This document shows positions 7,352 to 63,956 of a stretch of DNA of 64,000 nucleotides, one piece after another. The translations under genes were made by a program, and so were the position numbers. The stretch is from assembly GCA_040903985.1 (NCBI GenBank), contig JBBDUI010000002.1, positions 262,038 to 326,037 of the forward strand, read 5' to 3'. The stretch comes from Candidatus Saccharimonadales bacterium. GTDB lineage: Bacteria; Patescibacteriota; Saccharimonadia; QS-5-54-17. The first letter of the stretch is position 1, and each line of letters begins with the position of its first letter. A model generated the notes under the pieces. It saw only the letters and a program-made list of their open reading frames with translations. It made no database searches and was not told the DNA's origin.

Positions 7352-8614
7352 GAGCGTGGTGCGATAGTCCCGCACTAGCTGGGCGAAGACGGCGTTAGTC
7401 CAGCCAAAGCCGACTTGGTTAGGATAGACGCCATCTTTAGGCGGGACGGCGATATCTACTACGTTATATTTCTCGAAAAACTCACCCGAATTGATAAAGC
7501 CCTGCAGATTGTTGTGCAGCCAACGGTGAGCGATTCTAGCGGCCAATTCCTCATAGCCATATCTGGCTAGTCCTCGGATAGTTAACAGATGTAATGGCGC
7601 CCAACCGTTAGGATGAGACCACTGCGCCGGCTGGTGTTCGGCCACGTGAGGATATTCTAAGGTTGTAGCTAATCCACCGTACTCTTCGAACTTCTCGATG
7701 TGCGCCGCTAAGTGCGCCGCTTGCTCGGCACTAGCCATGCCAGACCAGAGGGCATAATAAGCCGCTAGCGACCAAACGTTCGAGTGACGACCGGTCTGGT
7801 AGTTATGATCGAAGTAAAAGCCAGCCTTAGGATTCCAGAGATACTTATCGACCGTCTTGCGCCGCTCCTGAGCCAGTTCCTGCCACTGCTCGGCCTCTTG
7901 CGGTTTGCCCAGGATTAAGGCCGCCCGGGCAAAATCACTCTCGCACTTAAACAACAGCGCATTGAGGTCGATCGGGGTGTAGTCCAGCGCTCGCCCGTGA
8001 AAGCGAGTGGTGTAGTCCCAGCCACTCTCACACTCAGCCAGATCATTGAGCACATTTATCTCGTAATTTCGGCTTAGGCCATGGAAAACATCACGCCAGT
8101 GCGGCTGTTCTCGGCCGCGCCAGACGTTACGATACTCCAGCTTGGCCAGCTCGATGCGCGGTGCCAGCCACTCCTTACTACCGTCGTGATCGTAGAGGTC
8201 GAGTAGAAGCGAGCTTAGCAGAGGTGGCTGCGAACGTGAGGTGAGATATAGCCGATTGCCGGTCGGCACCATGCCGAAGCGCTTTAGGAGGTGTAGTAGA
8301 TTGTCGGCCTGTTCGTAGGCCTGATGCTCCCGACTAGTACCGAGCAGGCTGAGGGCGATAAAGTAGGTATCCCAGTAGTACATCTCCTTATGGATAAAGC
8401 CATTTCTCGGCTTACTACCCGGGGTGAAATAAGGATGTGGAACGCCGATTAGTGTCTCAGTATCGGTCGGACAGGCTGTCTCTAACTGCCCCCACTTCGC
8501 CTCGATATAGCCCATAGCCCGCTCGACGCTAGCTTGATTCAGGCGGGGCGGCAGACGCAACAACAGGTCATCACCAGTTCTAGTTTTAATCTTAGTAGTA
8601 AGCTCTCGGGCCAC
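7346..8614 (-). CDS. treA: Trehalase (glycoside hydrolase family 37)
   Basis: 422 aa. FIHKEMYYWDTYF matches trehalase signature 1 (...Y-x-W-D-x-Y). QWSHPNGWAPLH matches signature 2 (QWDxPxGWxP). Confidence 0.8.
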   Translation of the reverse strand: MARELTTKIKTRTGDDLLLRLPPRLNQASVERAMGYIEAKWGQLETACPTDTETLIGVPHPYFTPGSKPRNGFIHKEMYYWDTYFIALSLLGTSREHQAYEQADNLLHLLKRFGMVPTGNRLYLTSRSQPPLLSSLLLDLYDHDGSKEWLAPRIELAKLEYRNVWRGREQPHWRDVFHGLSRNYEINVLNDLAECESGWDYTTRFHGRALDYTPIDLNALLFKCESDFARAALILGKPQEAEQWQELAQERRKTVDKYLWNPKAGFYFDHNYQTGRHSNVWSLAAYYALWSGMASAEQAAHLAAHIEKFEEYGGLATTLEYPHVAEHQPAQWSHPNGWAPLHLLTIRGLARYGYEELAARIAHRWLHNNLQGFINSGEFFEKYNVVDIAVPPKDGVYPNQVGFGWTNAVFAQLVRDYRTTLL

Positions 8615-8746
8615 CCTGCCTCACTTTTCTCTAGTTCTCTTGTCCACTACTATAGCGCTTGTGGTTATGAGGGTCAAAGCAAGGACGCTTAACTATTTCC
8701 TATGTTTCAGCTACTATAGCGAGAACTAACCTGTGAGGTTTTACCT

Positions 8747-8953
8747 ATGGAGCGCAAAAACCAGACATCTCTACCTCATGTATACTTAATCGGGACAGCA
8801 GCAGCTCTGCTGGTATCAGCGACTCTGGCACCAAATGAAACTACACCGGTACGGAAACCTACCCCAGAAACTGTAGCTGCTGGTCAAGTTGCAGCTTATT
8901 TACCGGAAGATGCGAGTGAGTTACCTAGACTGAAGATGAATCGGGTTAGGTAA
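8747..8953 (+). CDS. Hypothetical small protein (hydrophobic N-terminus) in the low-GC island
   Basis: 68-aa ORF. No recognisable family. Confidence 0.25.
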   Translation: MERKNQTSLPHVYLIGTAAALLVSATLAPNETTPVRKPTPETVAAGQVAAYLPEDASELPRLKMNRVR

Positions 8954-9071
8954 GCTAATGAATATATGACGAGAACTCACTGCATTCTATTTAGCCGCAA
9001 TCTACATTGTGCTATTATTAATTCTCTTTTAGATTTATAATTAAAGTTAACAATTCAAGCTGGGAGCAGCA

Positions 9072-10629: not shown

Positions 10630-10830
10630 TGTGCCCTCCGTTGATTATATAACTTACTATTTATAAGCAAACACTTTGCTCTTAGCTCAAAAGTAAAATT
10701 GTTTACCATCAGTAATGTTTTAAGGGTACCATATTATGGGAATCGTTTATCTTTCTGCTCGCTCATGGTTCGCCTGCGGCTCACTCAAAGTATCCTAAAG
10801 CTGCCGCTGTCAGCTTTAGACCTCGCGGGC

Positions 10831-10900
10831 GCGATTCCCCTCTCGAAAACTAAACCAATGAAAAAGCCCGACTATGGTCGGGCACTTTCATTGGTGGAGC
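10831..10900. repeat. Direct repeat R3. It is a roughly 85%-identical copy of the tmRNA 3' terminus (gctccacca), the terminator hairpin and about 37 nt of downstream flank.
   Basis: Hand-aligned to 12601..12672 with about 60 of 70 identical positions. It contains the same AATGAAAAAGCCCGAC...GTCGGGCACTTTCATT hairpin. Confidence 0.7.
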
Positions 10901-11118: not shown

Positions 11119-12321
11119 TTAGCTTGCTATAAATCTCTTAATCCTAGAGACAACGTAATCCCTAATTAGTTGTTCTGACTGGCTAATTAGGTCCTTGTAC
11201 TCAGCCTTTTCGGTTGATGTTGCCTTACTGTAGCCATGAATTTCAATTTTGCCGTGAATGACTTCGTGTCTAGCATTAAACAGCTTCTCTATGTGCTTTA
11301 TGCAATTTTCTCTATCGGACTCGGTTTTTGAAATAGTCTCAGCTATTACAGGTGCCTTTTCGCTAATCGTCGGTACGATATTACTATTTGTTATACTGTG
11401 TTTCCTAGTTGGGAATAGTGAATCAACTACCGATACCAGAAAAACTAGTTGTAGGCTCCAATCTTCATTATTCAAGAACTCTAGGTACCAATAGAGAGCA
11501 TTACATAATTGAATCCGTGCATTTTCTTTATTTTTTGCAGATTGTTTTTTTGAAATATCCTTAAACAATGAATTTACGGCATTAATTCTATCCTTATCGT
11601 TCTTGAAAGAAAGCGTCGTAGCTCTAGAGGCTTTTAGCGGATTTTTGAAGTTTGAATTATATTTGTCATCTAACTTAAATACTCTCGGAGTGGGGGAATG
11701 TCTCCTAATACTATTTGTTGCGAGTGTGCCGAATACGACATGTAGCGAATAATAAAGTCCTACTAATCTATCTGGACTGTAATTTGATTCTAGAAATGCG
11801 TATTCTCCAGTCCTAACAAGACCTTTATCTTCAATGTAGAGGTACTTCTCGCCAACTTTAGGTATGTTATCGCCAAACATCTGCTCTCTCAAAGCTTTGG
11901 CAAGTCCCTGACCCTTAACTTCATTTTTACTTTTGAATTGGTTAAATCTTTTCTGGTCAACCTCAATTATCTTAATGCTATCAAGATCTTGCAGGCCACC
12001 ACAATAATCATCAGGTAATTGGTAATAAAATTTATAAATATAAGGAATTCCTGAAGCCAGCTTATGTATATCAGTTATGACTTTATCTTTTTCGGCAGCA
12101 GTCATGGCTCTAGATTCACGGTTAAAATCACTGACTTTGAAAGCACTTGTGATAAGCATGTTCCAGAAAAACGGCCAATCAATTGCCGAATCATAAAGCT
12201 TCAAATCCACTATCTTATATAGCGGGTCAAAATTAATTGTGTCCACATCTATAAAGCCATCATTTAGCTTAGCGTTGGATAAACTATTCTTTAGTAATAC
12301 TTCTGGATTCTGTCTGGCCAT
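11119..12321 (-). CDS. Hypothetical protein, island cargo. It may be an Abi-like protein with a C-terminal HEPN-like R-x4-H motif (NARHEVIHG).
   Basis: 400-aa ORF in AT-rich DNA bracketed by tmRNA-end repeats. The functional call rests only on the motif and the context. Confidence 0.5.
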   Translation of the reverse strand: MARQNPEVLLKNSLSNAKLNDGFIDVDTINFDPLYKIVDLKLYDSAIDWPFFWNMLITSAFKVSDFNRESRAMTAAEKDKVITDIHKLASGIPYIYKFYYQLPDDYCGGLQDLDSIKIIEVDQKRFNQFKSKNEVKGQGLAKALREQMFGDNIPKVGEKYLYIEDKGLVRTGEYAFLESNYSPDRLVGLYYSLHVVFGTLATNSIRRHSPTPRVFKLDDKYNSNFKNPLKASRATTLSFKNDKDRINAVNSLFKDISKKQSAKNKENARIQLCNALYWYLEFLNNEDWSLQLVFLVSVVDSLFPTRKHSITNSNIVPTISEKAPVIAETISKTESDRENCIKHIEKLFNARHEVIHGKIEIHGYSKATSTEKAEYKDLISQSEQLIRDYVVSRIKRFIAS

Positions 12322-12511: not shown

Positions 12512-12629
12512 CGTATCATATTATGCTCGCTCGAAATGCGTTTCTCGCTCGGCCAAGCAAGGAATTCTTAAGCTGCCACCGGCAGCTTAAGCCCTCTCGG
12601 GTGCAATTCCCCACCACAAAACTAAACCA

Positions 12630-12663
12630 ATGAAAAAGCCCGACTATCGTCGGGCACTTTCAT
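12630..12663 (-). terminator. Rho-independent terminator immediately after the tmRNA CCA end
   Basis: On the minus strand it reads AUGAAAGUGCCCGAC-GAUA-GUCGGGCUUUUUCAUU, a GC stem followed by a U5 run. Confidence 0.75.
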
Positions 12664-13076
12664 TGGTGGAGCTGCGGGGAATTGCACCCCGGTCCGCAAG
12701 TTAACTTCCTATCCCGCTACGAGCGTATTCGGTTTGAAAAGTTTCAGATATTTCCCGATCAAACCGACAAAAAAGAACTATCTATAGTCACAGTAAAGCT
12801 TCAGGCGGTTCGCCTCTGACGTACGAACTGCCCTACACCGGATAAATGTCACCAGATTTCCGTTATCCAGTAATCACGGAATTGATGGCTGCGGCGGTTA
12901 GGCTACAGCTGTCGCAAGGTTTCGAGGAGTCATAGCCTCAGAAACTGAAGCTAGAAAACTGTTCACCTTACTAGTAAATGTGTTTACATTTATTTGGGTT
13001 GGTCCAACTAACGTGTAGACCGAACCGGCTCGCTGAATAGGTTGTCAAAATACTCACGTCGAAGCTAATCAGCCCC
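12664..13076 (-). ncRNA. ssrA: tmRNA (SsrA), standard one-piece form, about 413 nt
   Basis: The 5' end GGGGCUGAUUAGCUUCGACG... matches the E. coli 5' end (GGGGCUGAUUCUGGAUUCGACGGG). The 3' end ...CGGGGUGCAAUUCCCCGCAGCUCCACCA gives a T-arm and an acceptor strand with the G3·U70 alanine identity pair. An internal tag frame ends ...GCG ACA GCU GUA GCC UAA. Confidence 0.85.
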
Positions 13077-18950: not shown

Positions 18951-18973
18951 ATAAATTTCATAAATTAGCCATT

Positions 18974-19001
18974 AAAAAACTCCGGATTTCCGGAGTTTTT
19001 T
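18974..19001. terminator. Bidirectional rho-independent terminator (AAAAAACTCCGGA-TT-TCCGGAGTTTTTT)
   Basis: Perfect 7-bp stem flanked by an A-run and a T-run. It terminates rplT on the plus strand and abuts the RNase P RNA 3' end on the minus strand. Confidence 0.7.
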
Positions 19002-19237
19002 AATGCAAGATCGCCTGTAAGCCGGATTCTGTTTGCTTAAACGCCCGTTGCCGAGCGTGAAGCAAGATGACTATCTCTCTAGTCCCGCGATTGCTCGTGG
19101 GATCAAGCGGGTAAAATATGTTTGCCACCGCCTGGGCTAAGCGTATGGTGACTCACTCCTTGCAGCGGACGGGGTTTACCTCCTGCCGATGTCACCACCG
19201 GTAGCTGTGGGCTCTTACCCCACTCCTTTCACCCTTA

Positions 19238-19367
19238 CCCCGCACCTGAAAATGATAGTGCTGGCGCACAAATGTAACCTCATACCAACCATATAACAGG
19301 GGTGATTATACCTTTACTGTTGCACGGAAGTTGATGATTGCAAGATCAATCATTTTCAGGTGCGGGG
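19238..19367. mobile_element. Miniature (non-coding) copy of the TIR element. It has 19-bp perfect terminal inverted repeats CCCCGCACCTGAAAATGAT / ATCATTTTCAGGTGCGGGG and sits at the P12 position of rnpB.
   Basis: The TIRs are identical to those of the GIY-YIG element 90 bp away. The 92-bp interior has no ORF. Confidence 0.7.
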
Positions 19368-19453
19368 CGGTATCGTTTCTGTGGCACTTTCCCTAAGGTC
19401 TCCCTCGGTTGTCGTTAACAACCGTCCTGCCCATGCGCTGTCCGGACTTTCCT

Positions 19454-19752
19454 CCCCGCACCTGAAAATGCTAACCAAAGCCGAGCCTCTTCTTCAGCTC
19501 TACAAGTCCTCGACCATAACGTTTGAGCTTACGCTCTCGTTCTTGAGCCAAGGCTTTGGTTGTAAAAGCCTCATAGTAGACAAGCTCCCAGGGTACACCA
19601 CTCTTTGTGGACGTATTCATACCTTGGTTATGTTGATGAAATCGCCGTTTCAAATCTGCCGTAGATCCGATATAGAACGTACCTGTCTTTTTACTGCGCA
19701 AGAGGTAGACATAATACATAGCGATTTCATCATAGCATTTTCAGGTGCGGGG
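19454..19752. mobile_element. TIR-bounded GIY-YIG element (299 bp). It has 20-bp perfect TIRs CCCCGCACCTGAAAATGCTA / TAGCATTTTCAGGTGCGGGG and sits at the P3 position of rnpB.
   Basis: The perfect 20-bp inverted repeats enclose one 82-aa GIY-YIG ORF. The ORF stop codon lies inside the TIR. Homologous elements are at 63276..63577 and (miniature) 19238..19367. Confidence 0.75.
19471..19719 (-). CDS. GIY-YIG nuclease-family protein (YhbQ/COG2827-like, 82 aa) encoded inside the TIR element
   Basis: MYYVYLLRSKKTGTFYIGSTADLKRRFHQHNQG... has the GIY...YIG motifs and a conserved R and H/N, as in E. coli YhbQ. It is on the same strand as rnpB. Confidence 0.75.
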   Translation of the reverse strand: MYYVYLLRSKKTGTFYIGSTADLKRRFHQHNQGMNTSTKSGVPWELVYYEAFTTKALAQERERKLKRYGRGLVELKKRLGFG

Positions 19753-19794
19753 CAGCCATCCAGCGATCTTGCAAGGGAAAATTATAGGCTAGAG

Positions 19795-20490
19795 CTAGCC
19801 GTTTTGCAACTTAGCTTCTTCGTCTAGAATGATGTTCACCTGCTCATCAGCTAAGGTGTTATGTTCGCGGTATACATGCCTGAAAGTCACATTCCCGATC
19901 TCCTCGGCCAACACCTTGATCGAATTATATACCGGCCATAATTCCTTATTTTTCACCTTGAATATGCCATTTAACTGGTTAGCTACTAGTAAACTATCCA
20001 TACAGAAGTCGATAGCAGTGGGCTTAAACTTCCGAGCAGCCTCCAGGGCGTGTTTGACTGCTTGGTATTCGGCCTGATTGTTAGTAGTTATACCGAGATA
20101 CTGGCCGCCCTGCTCTAGGAGCTTGTCCTCATTTTCAGTTAAGATGACGAAGCCGCTAGCCGACGGACCGGGGTTTCCGCGAGAACCACCATCGGAATAA
20201 ATTCTAAGTTTCGTAGTATTTTCTACACTGTTTTCAGTAGTAACTGAATTTTTATTTAAAGCGGGCTCAATATTTTGTCGGGACTGTAAAGCCGTTAGAG
20301 CATCACGCCAAACATCCTTACTCTCACGGCTTTTTGATATAAGCTCTTTCGATCCATCCGGATGCAGGCCATAGATGTGGTGGCCTTTTTTGATGATGGC
20401 TATCCCCTGCTGCAAGGCCGCTAGTGCGACCGTTTCCCGTTTGGTATGTGTTGGTTTTGCGGCTGACATCTGTCTCATTATATCAGACAC
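19795..20490 (-). CDS. rnhA: Ribonuclease HI with an N-terminal extension
   Basis: IYSDGGSRGNPGPSASGFVI...NNQAEYQAV...CMDSLLVANQ...HVYREHNTLAD matches the RNase H DEDD catalytic-residue pattern. The stop is about 19 nt from the RNase P RNA 5' end. Confidence 0.8.
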   Translation of the reverse strand: MSDIMRQMSAAKPTHTKRETVALAALQQGIAIIKKGHHIYGLHPDGSKELISKSRESKDVWRDALTALQSRQNIEPALNKNSVTTENSVENTTKLRIYSDGGSRGNPGPSASGFVILTENEDKLLEQGGQYLGITTNNQAEYQAVKHALEAARKFKPTAIDFCMDSLLVANQLNGIFKVKNKELWPVYNSIKVLAEEIGNVTFRHVYREHNTLADEQVNIILDEEAKLQNG

Positions 20491-42275: not shown

Positions 42276-43343
42276 TTAGCCTCGCATTAGACGGTCAAGC
42301 TCTTGAATATCGACGGCATAGTTCTTAGCTTCATCATAGGTGATCTTGCCCGCATGAATTAACTCCACCAACGTCTTATCCATCGACTGCATGCCCTGGT
42401 CCGCCCCGGTCTGGATCACGGAGTCGAGCTGGTGGGTCTTACCCTCACGAATGATATTACGTACAGCCGGGTTAGCGATTAAGATTTCGGTCGCCGGTAT
42501 ACGCCCACCTCCGATAGCCGGGACTAGACGCTGAGAAATTACACCCTTTAAGATCGAAGCTAGCTGCACACGGACCTGCTGCTGCTGGTGCGGCGGGAAG
42601 ACATCGATGATACGATCCACGCTCTGCGAAGCGGAGTTGGTGTGCAAGGTAGCAAACACCAAATGGCCGGTCTCGGCAATAGTGATAGCGGCGGCGATGG
42701 TTTCTAGATCGCGCATCTCTCCAATTAGCACGATATCCGGATCTTGACGCAAGGTCGACCGTAAAGCGGCGGCAAAGGAGTAGGTATCATAGTGGACCTC
42801 GCGCTGAACGATAACCGCTTTCTTACTGGTATGAGCATACTCGATTGGATCCTCAATGGTAATGATATGAACAGCCCGGGTAGTATTGATCTGATCGATC
42901 ATCGCCGCTAGCGTAGTCGACTTACCACTACCGGTCGGACCGGTCATTAACACCAGGCCGCGGGGGAATTCAGTAAAGCTGTTAACTACCTTAGGCAGGC
43001 CCAGTTCCTCAATCGTCTTAATCTCATTAGTAATTAGACGTAAGGCAGCGGCCATATTGCCCCGTTCGTGAAAGGCATTTACCCGAAATCGCCCAAGGTC
43101 GCCGAAGGCAAAGGAAAAATCCAGTTCCTTATCTTTAGTTAAGATCTGTTTCTGCTCCTCATCAACGATAGAGTAAAGCAGACCCTCTACTGTCTCTTCA
43201 TCTAGTGGCACCGCATCTTGGGCAGCGACCAGAGACCCGTCCAGGCGGAGCATCGGCGGTAACCCTACCTGTAAGTGGAGGTCCGAAGCACCCTTATCTA
43301 TCACTTCCTGTAGCAAAACTTCGATCCTGAGATTACTCTGCAT
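42276..43343 (-). CDS. pilT: Twitching motility / pilus retraction ATPase PilT
   Basis: 355 aa. Walker A is GPTGSGKSTT. PilT-size hexameric ATPase, adjacent to pilB. Confidence 0.85.
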   Translation of the reverse strand: MQSNLRIEVLLQEVIDKGASDLHLQVGLPPMLRLDGSLVAAQDAVPLDEETVEGLLYSIVDEEQKQILTKDKELDFSFAFGDLGRFRVNAFHERGNMAAALRLITNEIKTIEELGLPKVVNSFTEFPRGLVLMTGPTGSGKSTTLAAMIDQINTTRAVHIITIEDPIEYAHTSKKAVIVQREVHYDTYSFAAALRSTLRQDPDIVLIGEMRDLETIAAAITIAETGHLVFATLHTNSASQSVDRIIDVFPPHQQQQVRVQLASILKGVISQRLVPAIGGGRIPATEILIANPAVRNIIREGKTHQLDSVIQTGADQGMQSMDKTLVELIHAGKITYDEAKNYAVDIQELDRLMRG

Positions 43344-43364
43344 ACCTATATCCCCGCCTCTCTA

Positions 43365-45155
43365 TTACGCATCTGACGCTACCCGCATGACCTCTTCTAG
43401 GGTGGTCACACCGTTCAAAGCCTTGAGGTAGCCGTCCTGTTTCATGGTTATCATGCCGTCCTTCTGAGCCTGAAGCTGTACCTGAGTACTGGTGGTCTGA
43501 CTAGCTAGTAGCTTCTCCATCTCCGGTGTAATCGAGAAGACTTCGAAGATGCCGGTTCGTCCCTTGTAACCGTCCTGGCACTCACTGCAGCCCTTGCCTC
43601 TGTACAAAGTATAAGCGTTTTCACCTAATGAGGGCAAGTTCTCATAACCCAAGTCTTCACGTAGCTGCGCATCGGCCGTACCCGACTCCGGTAGTATCCC
43701 CTCCATCGACTTCCTGATCGACTCTACTTCCGCCGGCGAAGCCTCATAGCTCTCCGAGCACTTATCACAAATACGACGCACAAGTCGCTGTCCGATGATG
43801 GTATTAACCGTAGAGGCAATCAAGAAAGGTTCGATACCCATATCGATCAACCGGGGCAGAACACCAGAGGCCGAGTTAGTGTGCAGGGTCGAGAGCACTA
43901 CGTGTCCGGTCAAAGCCGCCTGCACCGCCAAATCAGCCGTCTCGCTATCTCGAATTTCCCCGATCATCACTACATCTGGGTCTTGACGCAAGATCGAGCG
44001 TAAGCCGCTGGCAAAAGTTAAACCGACCTGGGGGTTGACCTGCATCTGATTCACCCCATTCATCTTATATTCGACCGGATCTTCCAAAGTGATAATGTTA
44101 ATCGCCACTTCCTTAATAGTGTTGAGTGCAGCATACAAGGTCGTCGACTTACCACTACCGGTCGGACCGGTCGAAAGCGTCATACCGTGCGGACGCTTCA
44201 ACCCTTCACTAATAAGCCGTTTAGCCCGCCCAACATAACCGAGCGATTCGATACTGAGTAGGCTGGAATCTTTATCCAAGAGACGAATGACTACCTGTTC
44301 ACCCCATACTAAAGGCGCGATCGAGATACGTAAATCGATGTCACGACCCTGATGCTCGATCTGAAACTCACCGTCTTGAGGAATCCGGTGCTCGTCGATC
44401 TTTAGATTGGCAAGAATCTTTACGCGAGATACCAGAGCGGCTTCGACCTCTTTCGGTAGCGTCATGGTATCCTGCAGGATACCATCGACGCGGAAACGAA
44501 TCTTCAGCTCTTCTTCCCGTGGCTCCATGTGGATATCGGAAGCTTCCATCTGAGCGGCATAATCTAATATTGTGTTCAACGCCCGCGTAATTGGAGCGTC
44601 CTGAACTAAAGTCTTGACCTCTTGTGACCCGTTGGCCTGAAGTTTATCCTGATGCGCCTGTTCGGCTTGAGCAAACTCGTCGGCCGAACCGACTACGGCA
44701 GAGACTTCTTCTGAGACATCCGCCTTATACTGGGAGAGGACGGCATTAATGCTTTTACCCGAAACCATATGTGGTGTGACCGGGCGGCCAAGTTTACGCG
44801 TAATAAAGTCCACCGCTTGCAGGTTGGTCGGATCGATCATGCCGACCACCAATCGCCCCTCCATCACTCCAATCGGTACCACCTGATGACTGCGCGCCAA
44901 ATCCTTGGGAATCAGTTTCTTCAGCTCATCGTCGACCTGAAAGCCCTGTAAGTTAGCATAAGGCACGTTATCGGCCTTAGCTACCGTCTGTACTACCTTC
45001 TCCTCGTCAATCAAACGCCGCTCGGAAATTAGACTGAGAATAGATTTATTTGTCTCGGCCGATTCGCGCTGTAGATCCTTGAGTTGATCGGCAGAGAGAT
45101 AGCCCTGATCCAGAAGTAACTGCTCAAATGTCTTTTGGGCTTCACCGGTTAACAC
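43365..45155 (-). CDS. pilB: Type IV pilus assembly ATPase PilB (GspE family)
   Basis: 596 aa. It has the N-terminal GSPII_E_N domain, the Walker A GPTGSGKSTT and the C-terminal zinc-binding CxxC...CxxC (CDKC...CSEC). Confidence 0.85.
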   Translation of the reverse strand: MLTGEAQKTFEQLLLDQGYLSADQLKDLQRESAETNKSILSLISERRLIDEEKVVQTVAKADNVPYANLQGFQVDDELKKLIPKDLARSHQVVPIGVMEGRLVVGMIDPTNLQAVDFITRKLGRPVTPHMVSGKSINAVLSQYKADVSEEVSAVVGSADEFAQAEQAHQDKLQANGSQEVKTLVQDAPITRALNTILDYAAQMEASDIHMEPREEELKIRFRVDGILQDTMTLPKEVEAALVSRVKILANLKIDEHRIPQDGEFQIEHQGRDIDLRISIAPLVWGEQVVIRLLDKDSSLLSIESLGYVGRAKRLISEGLKRPHGMTLSTGPTGSGKSTTLYAALNTIKEVAINIITLEDPVEYKMNGVNQMQVNPQVGLTFASGLRSILRQDPDVVMIGEIRDSETADLAVQAALTGHVVLSTLHTNSASGVLPRLIDMGIEPFLIASTVNTIIGQRLVRRICDKCSESYEASPAEVESIRKSMEGILPESGTADAQLREDLGYENLPSLGENAYTLYRGKGCSECQDGYKGRTGIFEVFSITPEMEKLLASQTTSTQVQLQAQKDGMITMKQDGYLKALNGVTTLEEVMRVASDA

Positions 45156-63250: not shown

Positions 63251-63275
63251 CACCAACTCCTCTCTTTGGACTCCG

Positions 63276-63577
63276 CCCCGCACTTGAAAACGTTAACGAA
63301 AGCCAAGCCGTTTCTTGAGCTCGACTAAACCACGACCGTAACGCTTTAGTTCGCGTTCTCGCTCTAAAGCCAGGGCTTTCGATGGGAACGCTTCGTAATA
63401 GACGAGCTCCCATGGAATGCCACTCTTAGTCGCTTTACTGCGACCTAGGTTGTGTTGTTTGAATCGCTGCTTGAGATCTGCCGTGGAGCCGATATAAAAA
63501 GACTCATCTTTCTGACTCTGCAACAGGTACACAATAGTACATGAAGCGATTCTAACATAACGTTTTCAGGTGCGGGG
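63276..63577. mobile_element. Third copy of the TIR-bounded GIY-YIG element (302 bp). Its TIRs are CCCCGCACTTGAAAACGTTA / TAACGTTTTCAGGTGCGGGG, and it sits 26 bp upstream of the rpsF start.
   Basis: The 20-bp TIRs have one T/C difference and are homologous to the TIRs in rnpB. The element encloses a homologous 79-aa GIY-YIG ORF whose stop codon again lies inside the TIR. Confidence 0.7.
63293..63532 (-). CDS. GIY-YIG nuclease-family protein (YhbQ/COG2827-like), about three-quarters identical by eye to the copy at 19471..19719
   Basis: (V)YLLQSQKDESFYIGSTADLKQRFKQHNLG...RYGRGLVELKKRLGF. It has an apparent GTG start. A 1-nt indel relative to copy A removes the MYY N-terminus. Confidence 0.65.
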   Translation of the reverse strand: MYLLQSQKDESFYIGSTADLKQRFKQHNLGRSKATKSGIPWELVYYEAFPSKALALERERELKRYGRGLVELKKRLGFR

Positions 63578-63629
63578 AGAAAGGTTAACTTTATATCCAG
63601 CCTATTATACCAGATATCCGCCCCATAAC

Positions 63630-63956
63630 TCAATCTGTTCTCTCTGGCGCCTCAGCTACCCGCACCGTACGCTCTTCCGTCGTGGTCCGCCCCATACTAC
63701 TCCGAGCAACCAGCGTGAAGGTATAGGTACCTTCATCTAGGGTAACCTGATGACTAAAGCTACCGTCGTCCGCGACTATAATCGGCTGGCCGTCAATCGT
63801 CACCTCACTACCTAGACTGGTAGTGCCAGTAATAACGATCTCTCGGCTATAAATGGTCTGATCCTGAGTCGGAAACTCCACATGGAGCTGCGGGTTACCG
63901 GCCAGCAGAAGAACTTGCCAGATAATGTAGGCGATAACAGCAGCAATACCCAGCAA
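63630..63956 (-). CDS. Hypothetical membrane-anchored protein with an Ig-like/beta-rich C-terminus
   Basis: 108-aa ORF with an N-terminal TM segment. The true start may lie upstream. Confidence 0.3.
   Translation of the reverse strand: MLGIAAVIAYIIWQVLLLAGNPQLHVEFPTQDQTIYSREIVITGTTSLGSEVTIDGQPIIVADDGSFSHQVTLDEGTYTFTLVARSSMGRTTTEERTVRVAEAPERTD

Follow-up and report, generated by a model that had tools for sequence, protein, structure and literature searches.

The window analysed here is a 64,000-nucleotide (64-kb) stretch of a Candidatus Saccharimonadales contig (JBBDUI010000002.1, assembly GCA_040903985.1), and the subject of this report is a 302-bp element within it, termed copy C, that lies directly in front of the ribosomal protein gene rpsF. 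The genes of this locus were found to follow one another on a single strand in the order FtsK, a helix-turn-helix protein, copy C, rpsF, ssb, rpsR and efp, with 25 nt (CGGAGTCCAAAGAGAGGAGTTGGTG) separating the end of the element (63276) from the rpsF start codon (63250). Copy C consists of terminal inverted repeats (TIRs) bounding a single ORF for a small nuclease of the GIY-YIG superfamily. A search of the window for its end sequence, allowing up to three mismatches, identified six sites forming three pairs, with 0.00 expected from 100 shuffles; the other two pairs bound copies A and B, which lie at rnpB, the gene for RNase P RNA. An initial annotation, made from the sequence alone, had described copy C as the third copy of a TIR-bounded element in the leader of the rpsF-ssb-rpsR operon. 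The number of end pairs, and coordinates and strand read directly from the window, agree with this description.

On the plus strand, the 20-nt ends of copy C read CCCCGCACTTGAAAACGTTA (63276-63295) and TAACGTTTTCAGGTGCGGGG (63558-63577), with a single mismatch between them (T at 63284 versus G). This mismatch would give a U.G pair in plus-strand RNA and a C.A opposition in the minus-strand (gene-sense) RNA. Folding in silico predicted 19 pairs and one C.A, giving copy C the complementary ends that are a feature of intervening sequences (IVSs), with modelled hairpin energies of -30.6 kcal/mol in gene sense (with a 1x1 internal loop) and -34.5 kcal/mol in antisense, compared to -38.2 kcal/mol for the perfect ends of copy B. 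Both the pairing of the ends and the strand asymmetry of their mismatch had been proposed beforehand, and both were reproduced. The outer 15 nt of the ends are the same in copies A, B and C apart from a G->A lesion in one end of copy C, and the inner bases change by compensation (TGCTA/TAGCA in copy B, CGTTA/TAACG in copy C). Copies B and C share 71% nucleotide identity. All three copies possess TIRs, as do classical TIR insertion sequences and miniature inverted-repeat transposable elements (MITEs), and no duplicated bases that would indicate a target-site duplication were found in common between the flanks of copies A, B and C. No match to Intron_gpI was found in the 64-kb window, and approximately 60 of the 302 nt of copy C are non-coding.

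Alignment of copy C to copy B and to an orthologous copy in a relative (locus L211) showed that it reads ATGTACTAT-T-GTGTAC. The extra T at position 63533 places the ATG at 63542-63540, the first codon of the ancestral start ATG-TAC-TAC (M-Y-Y), out of frame; the frame of this ATG reaches a stop after 12 codons, and an in-frame GTG remains exactly at ancestral codon 4. A one-nucleotide insertion relative to the rnpB copy, shifting the MYY start and leaving a GTG, had been noted in the initial annotation, and it was seen here against both reference copies. Some 3708 nt of the window, including the indel, were found to be 100% identical to a metagenome-assembled genome (MAG) contig, JBBDOY010000002.1 (GCA_040876815.1, Candidatus Saccharimonadales), and to a separate Logan assembly of run SRR27977662. 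Since two further assemblies carry the identical sequence, the indel is unlikely to be an assembler artefact, although the NCBI MAG contig and the Logan assembly may rest on the same reads.

The ORF of copy C was matched by PF01541 with a score of 62.2 bits (E=6e-17) and that of copy B with 65.7 bits, above the cut-off of 22.6, and both copies carry the key residues of the superfamily. Across 40 homologs, Y16, R26 and E62 are invariant, with Y5 and H30 near-invariant (at least 90%). The element protein has a length of 79-82 aa and is spanned entirely by one GIY-YIG domain, a size and single-domain organisation shared with the Ssn family discussed below. An AlphaFold model gave a confident minimal GIY-YIG fold (pLDDT 93), the nearest structures being the UPF0213 protein BH0048 and the Slx1 nuclease domain (TM of approximately 0.7, 30-38% identity), followed by I-TevI and UvrC. 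The nuclease is the sole ORF of the element, which contains no known transposase. Searches with PADLOC, PHROGs and NCBIfam identified no defence system; their only matches, to the N-terminal GIY-YIG motif of homing endonucleases, were weak.

In syntenic relatives, whose RpsF proteins are 67-69% identical to that of the window, the spacer upstream of rpsF measures just 95-112 nt. Alignment showed these leaders to consist of an invariant -10 box (TG-TATAAT), an invariant AACCTTTCTCC, a hairpin, GGGGCGAAGNCCAAAGGAAGGAG and the ATG. When the leaders of the window and of the relatives were folded, every model paired CCUUUCU with the Shine-Dalgarno region and stacked the hairpin directly above this helix; in the window, this capping hairpin is formed by the paired ends of copy C (leader z-score of -7.6). 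A consensus scan identified a 10/12 TG-extended sigma-70-like match at 63633-63604 as the only good promoter match, and no such site on the gene strand inside 63276-63577. Because the promoter-like box lies upstream of copy C and none lies inside it, copy C is predicted to be part of the leader, situated upstream of rpsF in one transcript. The fold models thus place copy C downstream of a conserved rpsF promoter-like box, where it appears to replace the apical hairpin of a Shine-Dalgarno-sequestering helix. The earlier suggestion that the insertion might alter rpsF expression gains a concrete form from this, since copy C is predicted to cap the conserved CCUUUCU/Shine-Dalgarno helix. At E<=5, no Rfam family, ribosomal leaders included, was found to match the rpsF leaders of the window and three relatives. 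An S6:S18 autoregulatory RNA motif has reportedly been described in the rpsF leader.

The two copies noted earlier at rnpB both lie inside the RNase P RNA gene, as its helices P3 (copy B) and P12 (copy A). The initial annotation had recognised neither this placement nor that the family lives mainly in genes for structural RNAs. The Rfam family RNaseP_bact_a was placed at 19002-19492 on the minus strand. In its alignment, copy A forms the apex of P12, with the inverted ends making the P12 stem, and P1-P3 are forced into the 3' end of the copy B ORF with many non-canonical pairs. A TTGCAA-17-TATAAT site ending at 19781 and a terminator-like hairpin (19005-18970) flank an rnpB gene of 19774-19002. 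When both elements were trimmed to 12-bp stems, an RNA of 400 nt was obtained in which nt 2-13 pair with nt 387-398 as P1. Because the trimmed RNA restores P1 and the promoter-like site lies upstream of copy B, copy B replaces P3, directly ahead of AGGAAAGUCC; the true 5' end of rnpB lies upstream of copy B, the Rfam match misplacing it inside the copy B ORF. The length of the gene, 773 nt, is owed to the two elements at P3 and P12, one of which carries an intact sense ORF.

It was also considered whether the TIRs are simply the native P3 and P12 stems. This was rejected, as the same sequence flanks copy C as well as rRNA and intergenic copies, and as native P3 (L004: CTTGGGTTTACCCAAG) and native P12 (L006, L007 and L025) are unrelated short hairpins. 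Given that the native helices of unoccupied genes are short and unrelated, the element replaces the whole hairpin at its base. In L004 (2880-3350), rnpB was observed to have a native short P3 and an ORF-containing element replacing P12, so the two sites are occupied independently; a further ORF-less hairpin (CCCCTCAC...GTGAGGGG) lies 3' of this P12 element.

A profile built from the 40 homologs identified at least 591 loci in species-representative genomes, 80 of which, distributed across Patescibacteria, were kept for analysis, or 82 with copies B and C added. Flanking inverted ends scored 12 or more in 68 of the 82 loci (shuffled maximum of 10), with a median TIR arm for the family of 20 nt and an element length of 291-315 bp. 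The outer end consensus is C-C-C-[C/A]-[G/T]-C-A-C, the ends beginning CCCMKCACY. These outer bases are conserved among Saccharibacteria, Microgenomates, Parcubacteria, Berkelbacteria and Peribacteria; the inner bases vary by genome yet remain complementary. RNA genes host 35 of the 80 loci (rnpB 10, 23S 12, 16S 12 and just 3' of 16S 1), and in all 35 the ORF is co-directional with the RNA gene. Several of the rRNA sites, judged by eye from their flanks, fall at the tips of variable helices, 16S helix 6 and 23S helix 25 among them. The remaining loci are intergenic, beside genes as diverse as those for IleRS, DnaE, uL1 and LysRS; none of the 80 adjoins rpsF, and viral contigs scanned with the protein profile yielded no relative. 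No group I core was found around the element ORF, with group I matches in related loci lying elsewhere in the rRNA gene.

The arrangement of the window's rnpB, with an ORF-containing element at P3 and an ORF-less hairpin of 120-130 nt at P12, was also found in L001, L016 and L022. In three of these four cases (the window, L001 and L016), the ends of the P12 hairpin and of the P3 element agree beyond the universal core; L022 is the exception. Judged by these ends, such pairs resemble autonomous and non-autonomous partners. A metagenome scan with the 15-mer CCCCGCACCTGAAAA returned at least 120 stretches, nearly all of them single chance matches, as the pattern is too short; among the matches listed, paired ends were found only in L202.

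Further observations were made at individual loci. On the metagenome contig L202 (minus strand, approximately 8300-9000), a high-GC rnpB holds ORF-less hairpins of approximately 110 nt with CCCCGCACCT[G/A]AAAA ends, by eye at the P3 and P18 positions, and its host may lie outside the Candidate Phyla Radiation (CPR). Elements with a GIY-YIG ORF in L002 (2966-3264), L003 (1777-2090) and L005 (2966-3266) lie approximately 25 nt past a TATAAT-like box; their host is a short transcript, AGCCRTGTGYRGGCT-element-CTCCTCYGTACAGACT, with no Rfam match, which may be another structured RNA or leader. In L002, approximately 100-180 nt before the element and immediately behind the upstream gene, lies an ORF-less hairpin (CCCAGCACTTAGCACCGAG...CTCGGTGCTAAGTGCTGGG), possibly a non-autonomous copy that serves as a terminator-like structure. 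In L078 (3414-3710), the first GIY-YIG ORF is followed after 139 nt by a second, representing either tandem elements or paralogs. Group I introns are present in L047 (3601-3885) and L071 (5091-5359), with the element at another site of the same rRNA genes.

The age of the insertion at rpsF was approached through the upstream regions of relatives, among which an orthologous copy, a remnant and a short-hairpin state were found. L211, with a host RpsF 48% identical to that of the window, carries, at the identical rpsF position, a copy whose 82-aa ORF is intact and whose ends are perfect. This copy shares with copy C a TTC before the ATG and an F-R-stop ending, and copy B differs in both. L086 retains CCCCACACC plus TTTTCGTTAAGTGATTTCAGGTGCGGGG, corresponding to the outer 5' end together with the last codons (F-R-stop) and the 3' end, and this sequence is an internal-deletion remnant of the element. 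In L083, L085 and L089, only a short hairpin, CCCTTGTGACTGACACGGGGG, occupies the site. Because flanking-protein identities put the window outside (L086, (L083, L089)), the simplest history would be a single old insertion that some lineages kept and others eroded, with repeated homing to this rpsF site as a possible alternative. From these comparisons, the insertion appears to be older than the split from lineages with 48-69% identical RpsF.

Pairwise comparison of the ORFs of copies B and C, L211 and L001 gave proportions of synonymous differences (pS) of 0.68-0.88, which is saturated, and of non-synonymous differences (pN) of 0.12-0.15. The GIY-YIG proteins of the window and L211 share 78% identity, compared to 48% for RpsF. 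The element ORFs are thus under strong purifying selection. Since pN is low, pS is saturated and the catalytic residues are kept, the frameshift at codon 4 and the G->A change in the TIR of copy C are best seen as late, lineage-specific lesions on a long-maintained gene and not as the end stage of a long decay. The initial annotation had offered "older or decaying" as a description of copy C. Its first half is upheld by the orthologous intact copy in L211, by the remnant in L086 and by the nucleotide alignment of copies B and C for dating, which is saturated at synonymous sites. The second half stands only as far as the late frameshift and end mutation go, the ORF itself being under purifying selection (pN 0.14, pS 0.79-0.84) with its catalytic residues retained. 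The features of copies A, B and C and of their host genes are collected in Table 1.

Table 1. Coordinates of the three element copies and of the host features around them in the 64-kb window
Feature	Position	Strand	Remarks
Element copy C, 302 bp	63276..63577	minus	TIR, short 5' untranslated region, GIY-YIG ORF, TIR; in sense with rpsF
Copy C 5' TIR (gene sense), CCCCGCACCTGAAAACGTTA	63558..63577	minus	Outer 15 nt are those of copies A and B
Copy C 3' TIR (gene sense), TAACGTTTTCAAGTGCGGGG	63276..63295	minus	Bears the derived G->A
Copy C GIY-YIG ORF, 79 aa, GTG start	63293..63532	minus	Equivalents of copy B Y5, Y16, R26, H30 and E62 kept
Vestigial ATG-TAC-TAT with extra T	63533..63542	minus	From alignments to copy B and L211
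rpsF, 118 aa	62894..63250	minus	ssb, rpsR and efp come next, also on the minus strand
Promoter-like TTGAGT-18-TG-TATAAT	63604..63633	minus	Upstream of copy C; -10 box kept in relatives
CCUUUCU, putative anti-Shine-Dalgarno	63578..63584	minus	Invariant in relatives; predicted pairing with Shine-Dalgarno region
AGAGAGG, rpsF Shine-Dalgarno region	63259..63265	minus	3' strand of host leader helix; TIR stem stacks on the helix
Element copy B, 299 bp, intact 82-aa GIY-YIG ORF (19471-19719)	19454..19752	minus	Replaces P3
Element copy A, 130-bp hairpin lacking an ORF, ends shared with copies B and C	19238..19367	minus	Forms P12
RNase P RNA gene, redrawn, 773 nt	19002..19774	minus	Promoter-like site 19781-19809; P1/P2 5' strands 19753-19774; terminator-like hairpin 18970-19005

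Mismatches between the two ends were then counted on the ORF-sense strand. Across all loci, 46 were G.U-compatible and 8 were A.C (p = 1.4e-7), with a count per locus of 28 versus 6; within RNA genes the figures were 36 and 2 (p = 5e-9). A bias of this kind would be expected if pairing were selected for in those host RNAs that are structural. The plus-strand GC skew was observed to be negative throughout positions 1-64000 (-0.05 to -0.11, about -0.09). Because it is uniformly so, the minus strand, which bears rnpB and the rpsF operon, is probably the leading strand.

Several known systems were compared with the family. Non-intron insertion sequences with GIY-YIG ORFs have already been published for the 16S and 23S rRNA genes of CPR bacteria, where their occurrence is called sparse and "outside the context of homing" (Tsurumaki et al. 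2024, PMC11270868, citing Brown et al. 2015). These share their host group and protein family with the family of copy C, are not group I or II introns and lie at the top or base of stem-loops, and 25 of the 80 loci analysed here are such cases. The published insertions are in rRNA, whereas copy C lies in an mRNA leader and copies A and B in rnpB. The passages of that paper covered by the search make no mention of inverted ends, ORF-less partners, RNase P RNA or mRNA leaders. Large extensions of helices have been reported in CPR RNase P RNAs, with no ORFs (Lui et al. 2021, PMC8172020). The conserved ends, the ORF-less partners, the RNase P sites and the mRNA-leader site appear to be new.

The rRNA IVSs with an ORF (Coxiella and Leptospira S23p; Salmonella helix 25/45) resemble the family in their complementary ends, which pair into a stem on top of a host helix, in the small sense ORF inside, in a host RNA that stays functional and in their sporadic spread. 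Their ORF encodes the four-helix S23p protein, in contrast to the GIY-YIG nuclease found here. IVSs are known only in rRNA, where excision by RNase III has been demonstrated; copies A-C, for which such excision is a possibility, do not lie at an rRNA helix apex, as their relatives in 16S and 23S do. The element is classed as an IVS-like GIY-YIG insertion, occupying an mRNA leader and the RNase P RNA gene in this window.

Among GIY-YIG proteins, members of the Ssn family, cd10448, are single-domain proteins of approximately 80-95 aa that are encoded by genes flanked by inverted-repeat DNA (NTS/SRM) and cleave single-stranded DNA (ssDNA) beside their own flanking hairpin repeats. Many dispersed ORF-less repeats exist, the repeat co-varies with the enzyme, and an architecture resembling an insertion sequence was noted by the authors (Chenal et al. 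2025, PMC11893778). The Ssn NTS is a self-contained hairpin of approximately 30 nt with a GTC-containing flank, whereas here two ends pair across the ORF; Ssn repeats have not been reported inside RNA genes, in contrast to the rnpB, rRNA and mRNA-leader sites of this family. The Ssn SRM motif HGTCWYN(0-2)YYVSBRHN(0-5)WNVSBRGN(0-2)RNCYNB gave 0 matches within the ORF and 200 nt to either side at the 82 loci (shuffles 0.4). The standalone prokaryotic Slx1-like proteins represent the minimal form of GIY-YIG, lacking auxiliary domains (Dunin-Horkawicz et al. 2006, PMC1564403). These Slx1-like/UPF0213 proteins (BH0048, 1zg2; EF2693, 1ywl) are closest to the element protein by sequence and fold, and have no assigned genomic context or association with a mobile element. 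Hairpin ends, the lack of a target-site duplication, short non-autonomous derivatives and a possible action on ssDNA are shared with IS200/IS605, REP/RAYT and MITEs. The enzyme of the IS200/IS605 and REP/RAYT systems is an HUH Y1 transposase that forms a covalent intermediate, which a GIY-YIG nuclease alone cannot form.

The explanation favoured here, held with moderate confidence, is that copy C is an old resident belonging to a family of IVS-like selfish elements that are transcribed by the host and neutral to RNA structure, and whose nuclease probably acts on the element's own ends. Elements of approximately 300 bp, with ends of approximately 20 bp and one gene for a Slx1/UPF0213-type GIY-YIG protein of approximately 80 aa, would replace apical hairpins of strongly transcribed structured RNAs. 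Copy C would be carried in the leader of a transcript starting from the upstream promoter-like box. The host helix could still form because the two ends would pair in the transcript and close the 302-nt insert as a side-branch, and the same would hold for copy B at P3, copy A at P12 and the related elements in helices of 16S and 23S rRNA. The nuclease gene, having no promoter of its own, would be translated from the host transcript. By analogy with Slx1, which acts on branched DNA, and with the hairpin-guided ssDNA cleavage of Ssn, the nuclease may recognise the conserved ends as a DNA hairpin or branch, and may thereby cause the element, together with ORF-less partners like copy A, to spread or to be retained. 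In copy C, this history would have been followed by two late lesions, namely the G->A change in the end nearer to rpsF and the extra T at codon 4, which the in-frame GTG partly rescues.

A number of points weigh against this explanation. Transcription from the upstream box, translation of the ORF and cleavage of DNA are all inferred. Intergenic copies have no G.U bias (10:6), and copy C is itself one of the rare A.C cases, with an unfavourable C.A, so that selection on the stem at the RNA level is unsupported at the rpsF leader. The G.U signal in rRNA genes could be mimicked by a transcription-associated C->T bias on the non-template strand. The sense strand is, moreover, the likely lagging-strand template, and a hairpin in ssDNA would give the same strand signal; the G.U bias was consequently rejected as a means of discriminating between an RNA hairpin and an ssDNA hairpin. 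With no target-site duplication and no near-identical copies (B and C being 71% identical), active transposition in the genome of the window is not shown. Long vertical persistence at one site under purifying selection would suit a domesticated gene equally well. Spread by homologous recombination via conserved flanks would be another way to account for the exact replacement of hairpins and for the concentration of the family in the most highly conserved RNA genes.

An extension of the favoured explanation, offered tentatively and with less confidence, is that the family constitutes an undescribed "hairpin-swapping" class of GIY-YIG mobile elements. The element's own Slx1-like nuclease would read the CCCMKCACY... 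ends, conserved throughout the phylum, as a DNA hairpin or branch. The elements would swap whole apical hairpins of rRNA, RNase P RNA and regulatory mRNA leaders harmlessly, since their ends would restore the helix, and they would ride on host promoters and mobilise ORF-less partners in trans.

A strict IVS mechanism, which is compatible with the favoured explanation and is considered somewhat unlikely, would have RNase III cut the end stem of approximately 20 bp, so that the insert is excised without ligation and the GIY-YIG mRNA released. The predicted helix of 19-20 bp formed by the ends at the base of the insert is what such a mechanism would use, and by eye several rRNA sites resemble classical IVS sites, namely 23S helix 25 (GGAGTCGGAG-element-TGACGGCGTG) and 16S helix 6. 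Short non-intron insertions in CPR 23S rRNA have been placed at known RNase III IVS sites (Tsurumaki et al. 2024, PMC11270868), and a Coxiella IVS with an ORF (PMC4990558) provides a precedent. Conservation of sequence is not required for the cleavage of double-stranded RNA, yet in these ends the outer 8-9 nt are conserved phylum-wide. A motif search of the 64-kb window found no RNase III gene, which says nothing on the whole genome. At rpsF, excision would part the promoter-proximal anti-Shine-Dalgarno segment from the rpsF message and so change its regulation.

It is unlikely that the ORF is instead a domesticated gene with a host function, for instance as a structure-specific DNA repair nuclease, residing immobile behind strong promoters with its ends serving as a device for RNA stability or insulation. 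The filling of the same site in lineages with 48% identical RpsF would be expected of such a gene, as would the protein being better conserved than RpsF (78% versus 48%), a ratio of non-synonymous to synonymous substitutions (dN/dS) well below 1 and the absence of recent copies from the window. Set against this are the several copies per genome at unrelated sites, the ORF-less partners sharing genome-specific ends (window, L001 and L016), the loss of the ORF without replacement at the site in close relatives (L086 and L083/85/89), the intergenic copies beside very diverse genes and the tolerance of a codon-4 frameshift by copy C.

Copy C could also be a pseudogene and an inert piece of the leader, given that the +1 T deletes the near-invariant N-terminal M-Y-Y and that one end is mutated within the 15 nt common to all three copies. 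This is considered improbable, as the remaining 79 codons are open with every invariant residue kept, pN/pS of copy C against copy B and L211 is as low as between intact copies, and the in-frame GTG falls exactly at ancestral codon 4. That the element donates a promoter driving rpsF, as was once suggested, has its position alone in its favour and is highly improbable, as no sigma-70-like gene-strand site lies inside it and the sole good match (10/12) is upstream, with a -10 box that is kept in relatives without the element.

Elsewhere in the window, a 115-nt direct repeat (85% identical) was identified at 10786-10900 and 12558-12672, one copy abutting the 3' end of the tmRNA (12664-13076, minus strand). 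These repeats bracket an ORF of 400 aa of unknown function (11119-12321, minus strand), the whole looking like a small island integrated at ssrA. Pairs of direct repeats approximately 1.23 kb apart (42708-42776/43947-44015 and 42913-42945/44140-44172) probably represent two adjacent paralogous genes, and one repeat of the 42708-44172 region appears by eye to encode a Walker-A-like motif.

Taken alone, the copy at rpsF is a modest curiosity, yet it anchors a coherent and largely undescribed family of elements. What had been scattered GIY-YIG insertions in CPR rRNA become a defined element with a fixed size, conserved ends, ORF-less partners and a strict sense orientation, and the same element is shown to be present in helices of RNase P RNA and in a ribosomal-protein mRNA leader. 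Its conserved end sequence is a candidate substrate for minimal nucleases that have had no known function, and the related Ssn proteins are under development as ssDNA tools. The element also explains why covariance models misdraw or miss the RNase P RNAs of CPR bacteria, as with the Rfam match here that loses the true 5' end. The rpsF site provides a natural experiment on the amount of foreign sequence that a regulatory leader hairpin can bear in front of an essential operon. Should the hairpin-swapping class prove true, protein genes nested in RNase P RNA, and standing as the first cistron of the rpsF operon, would be a regular feature of CPR genomes.

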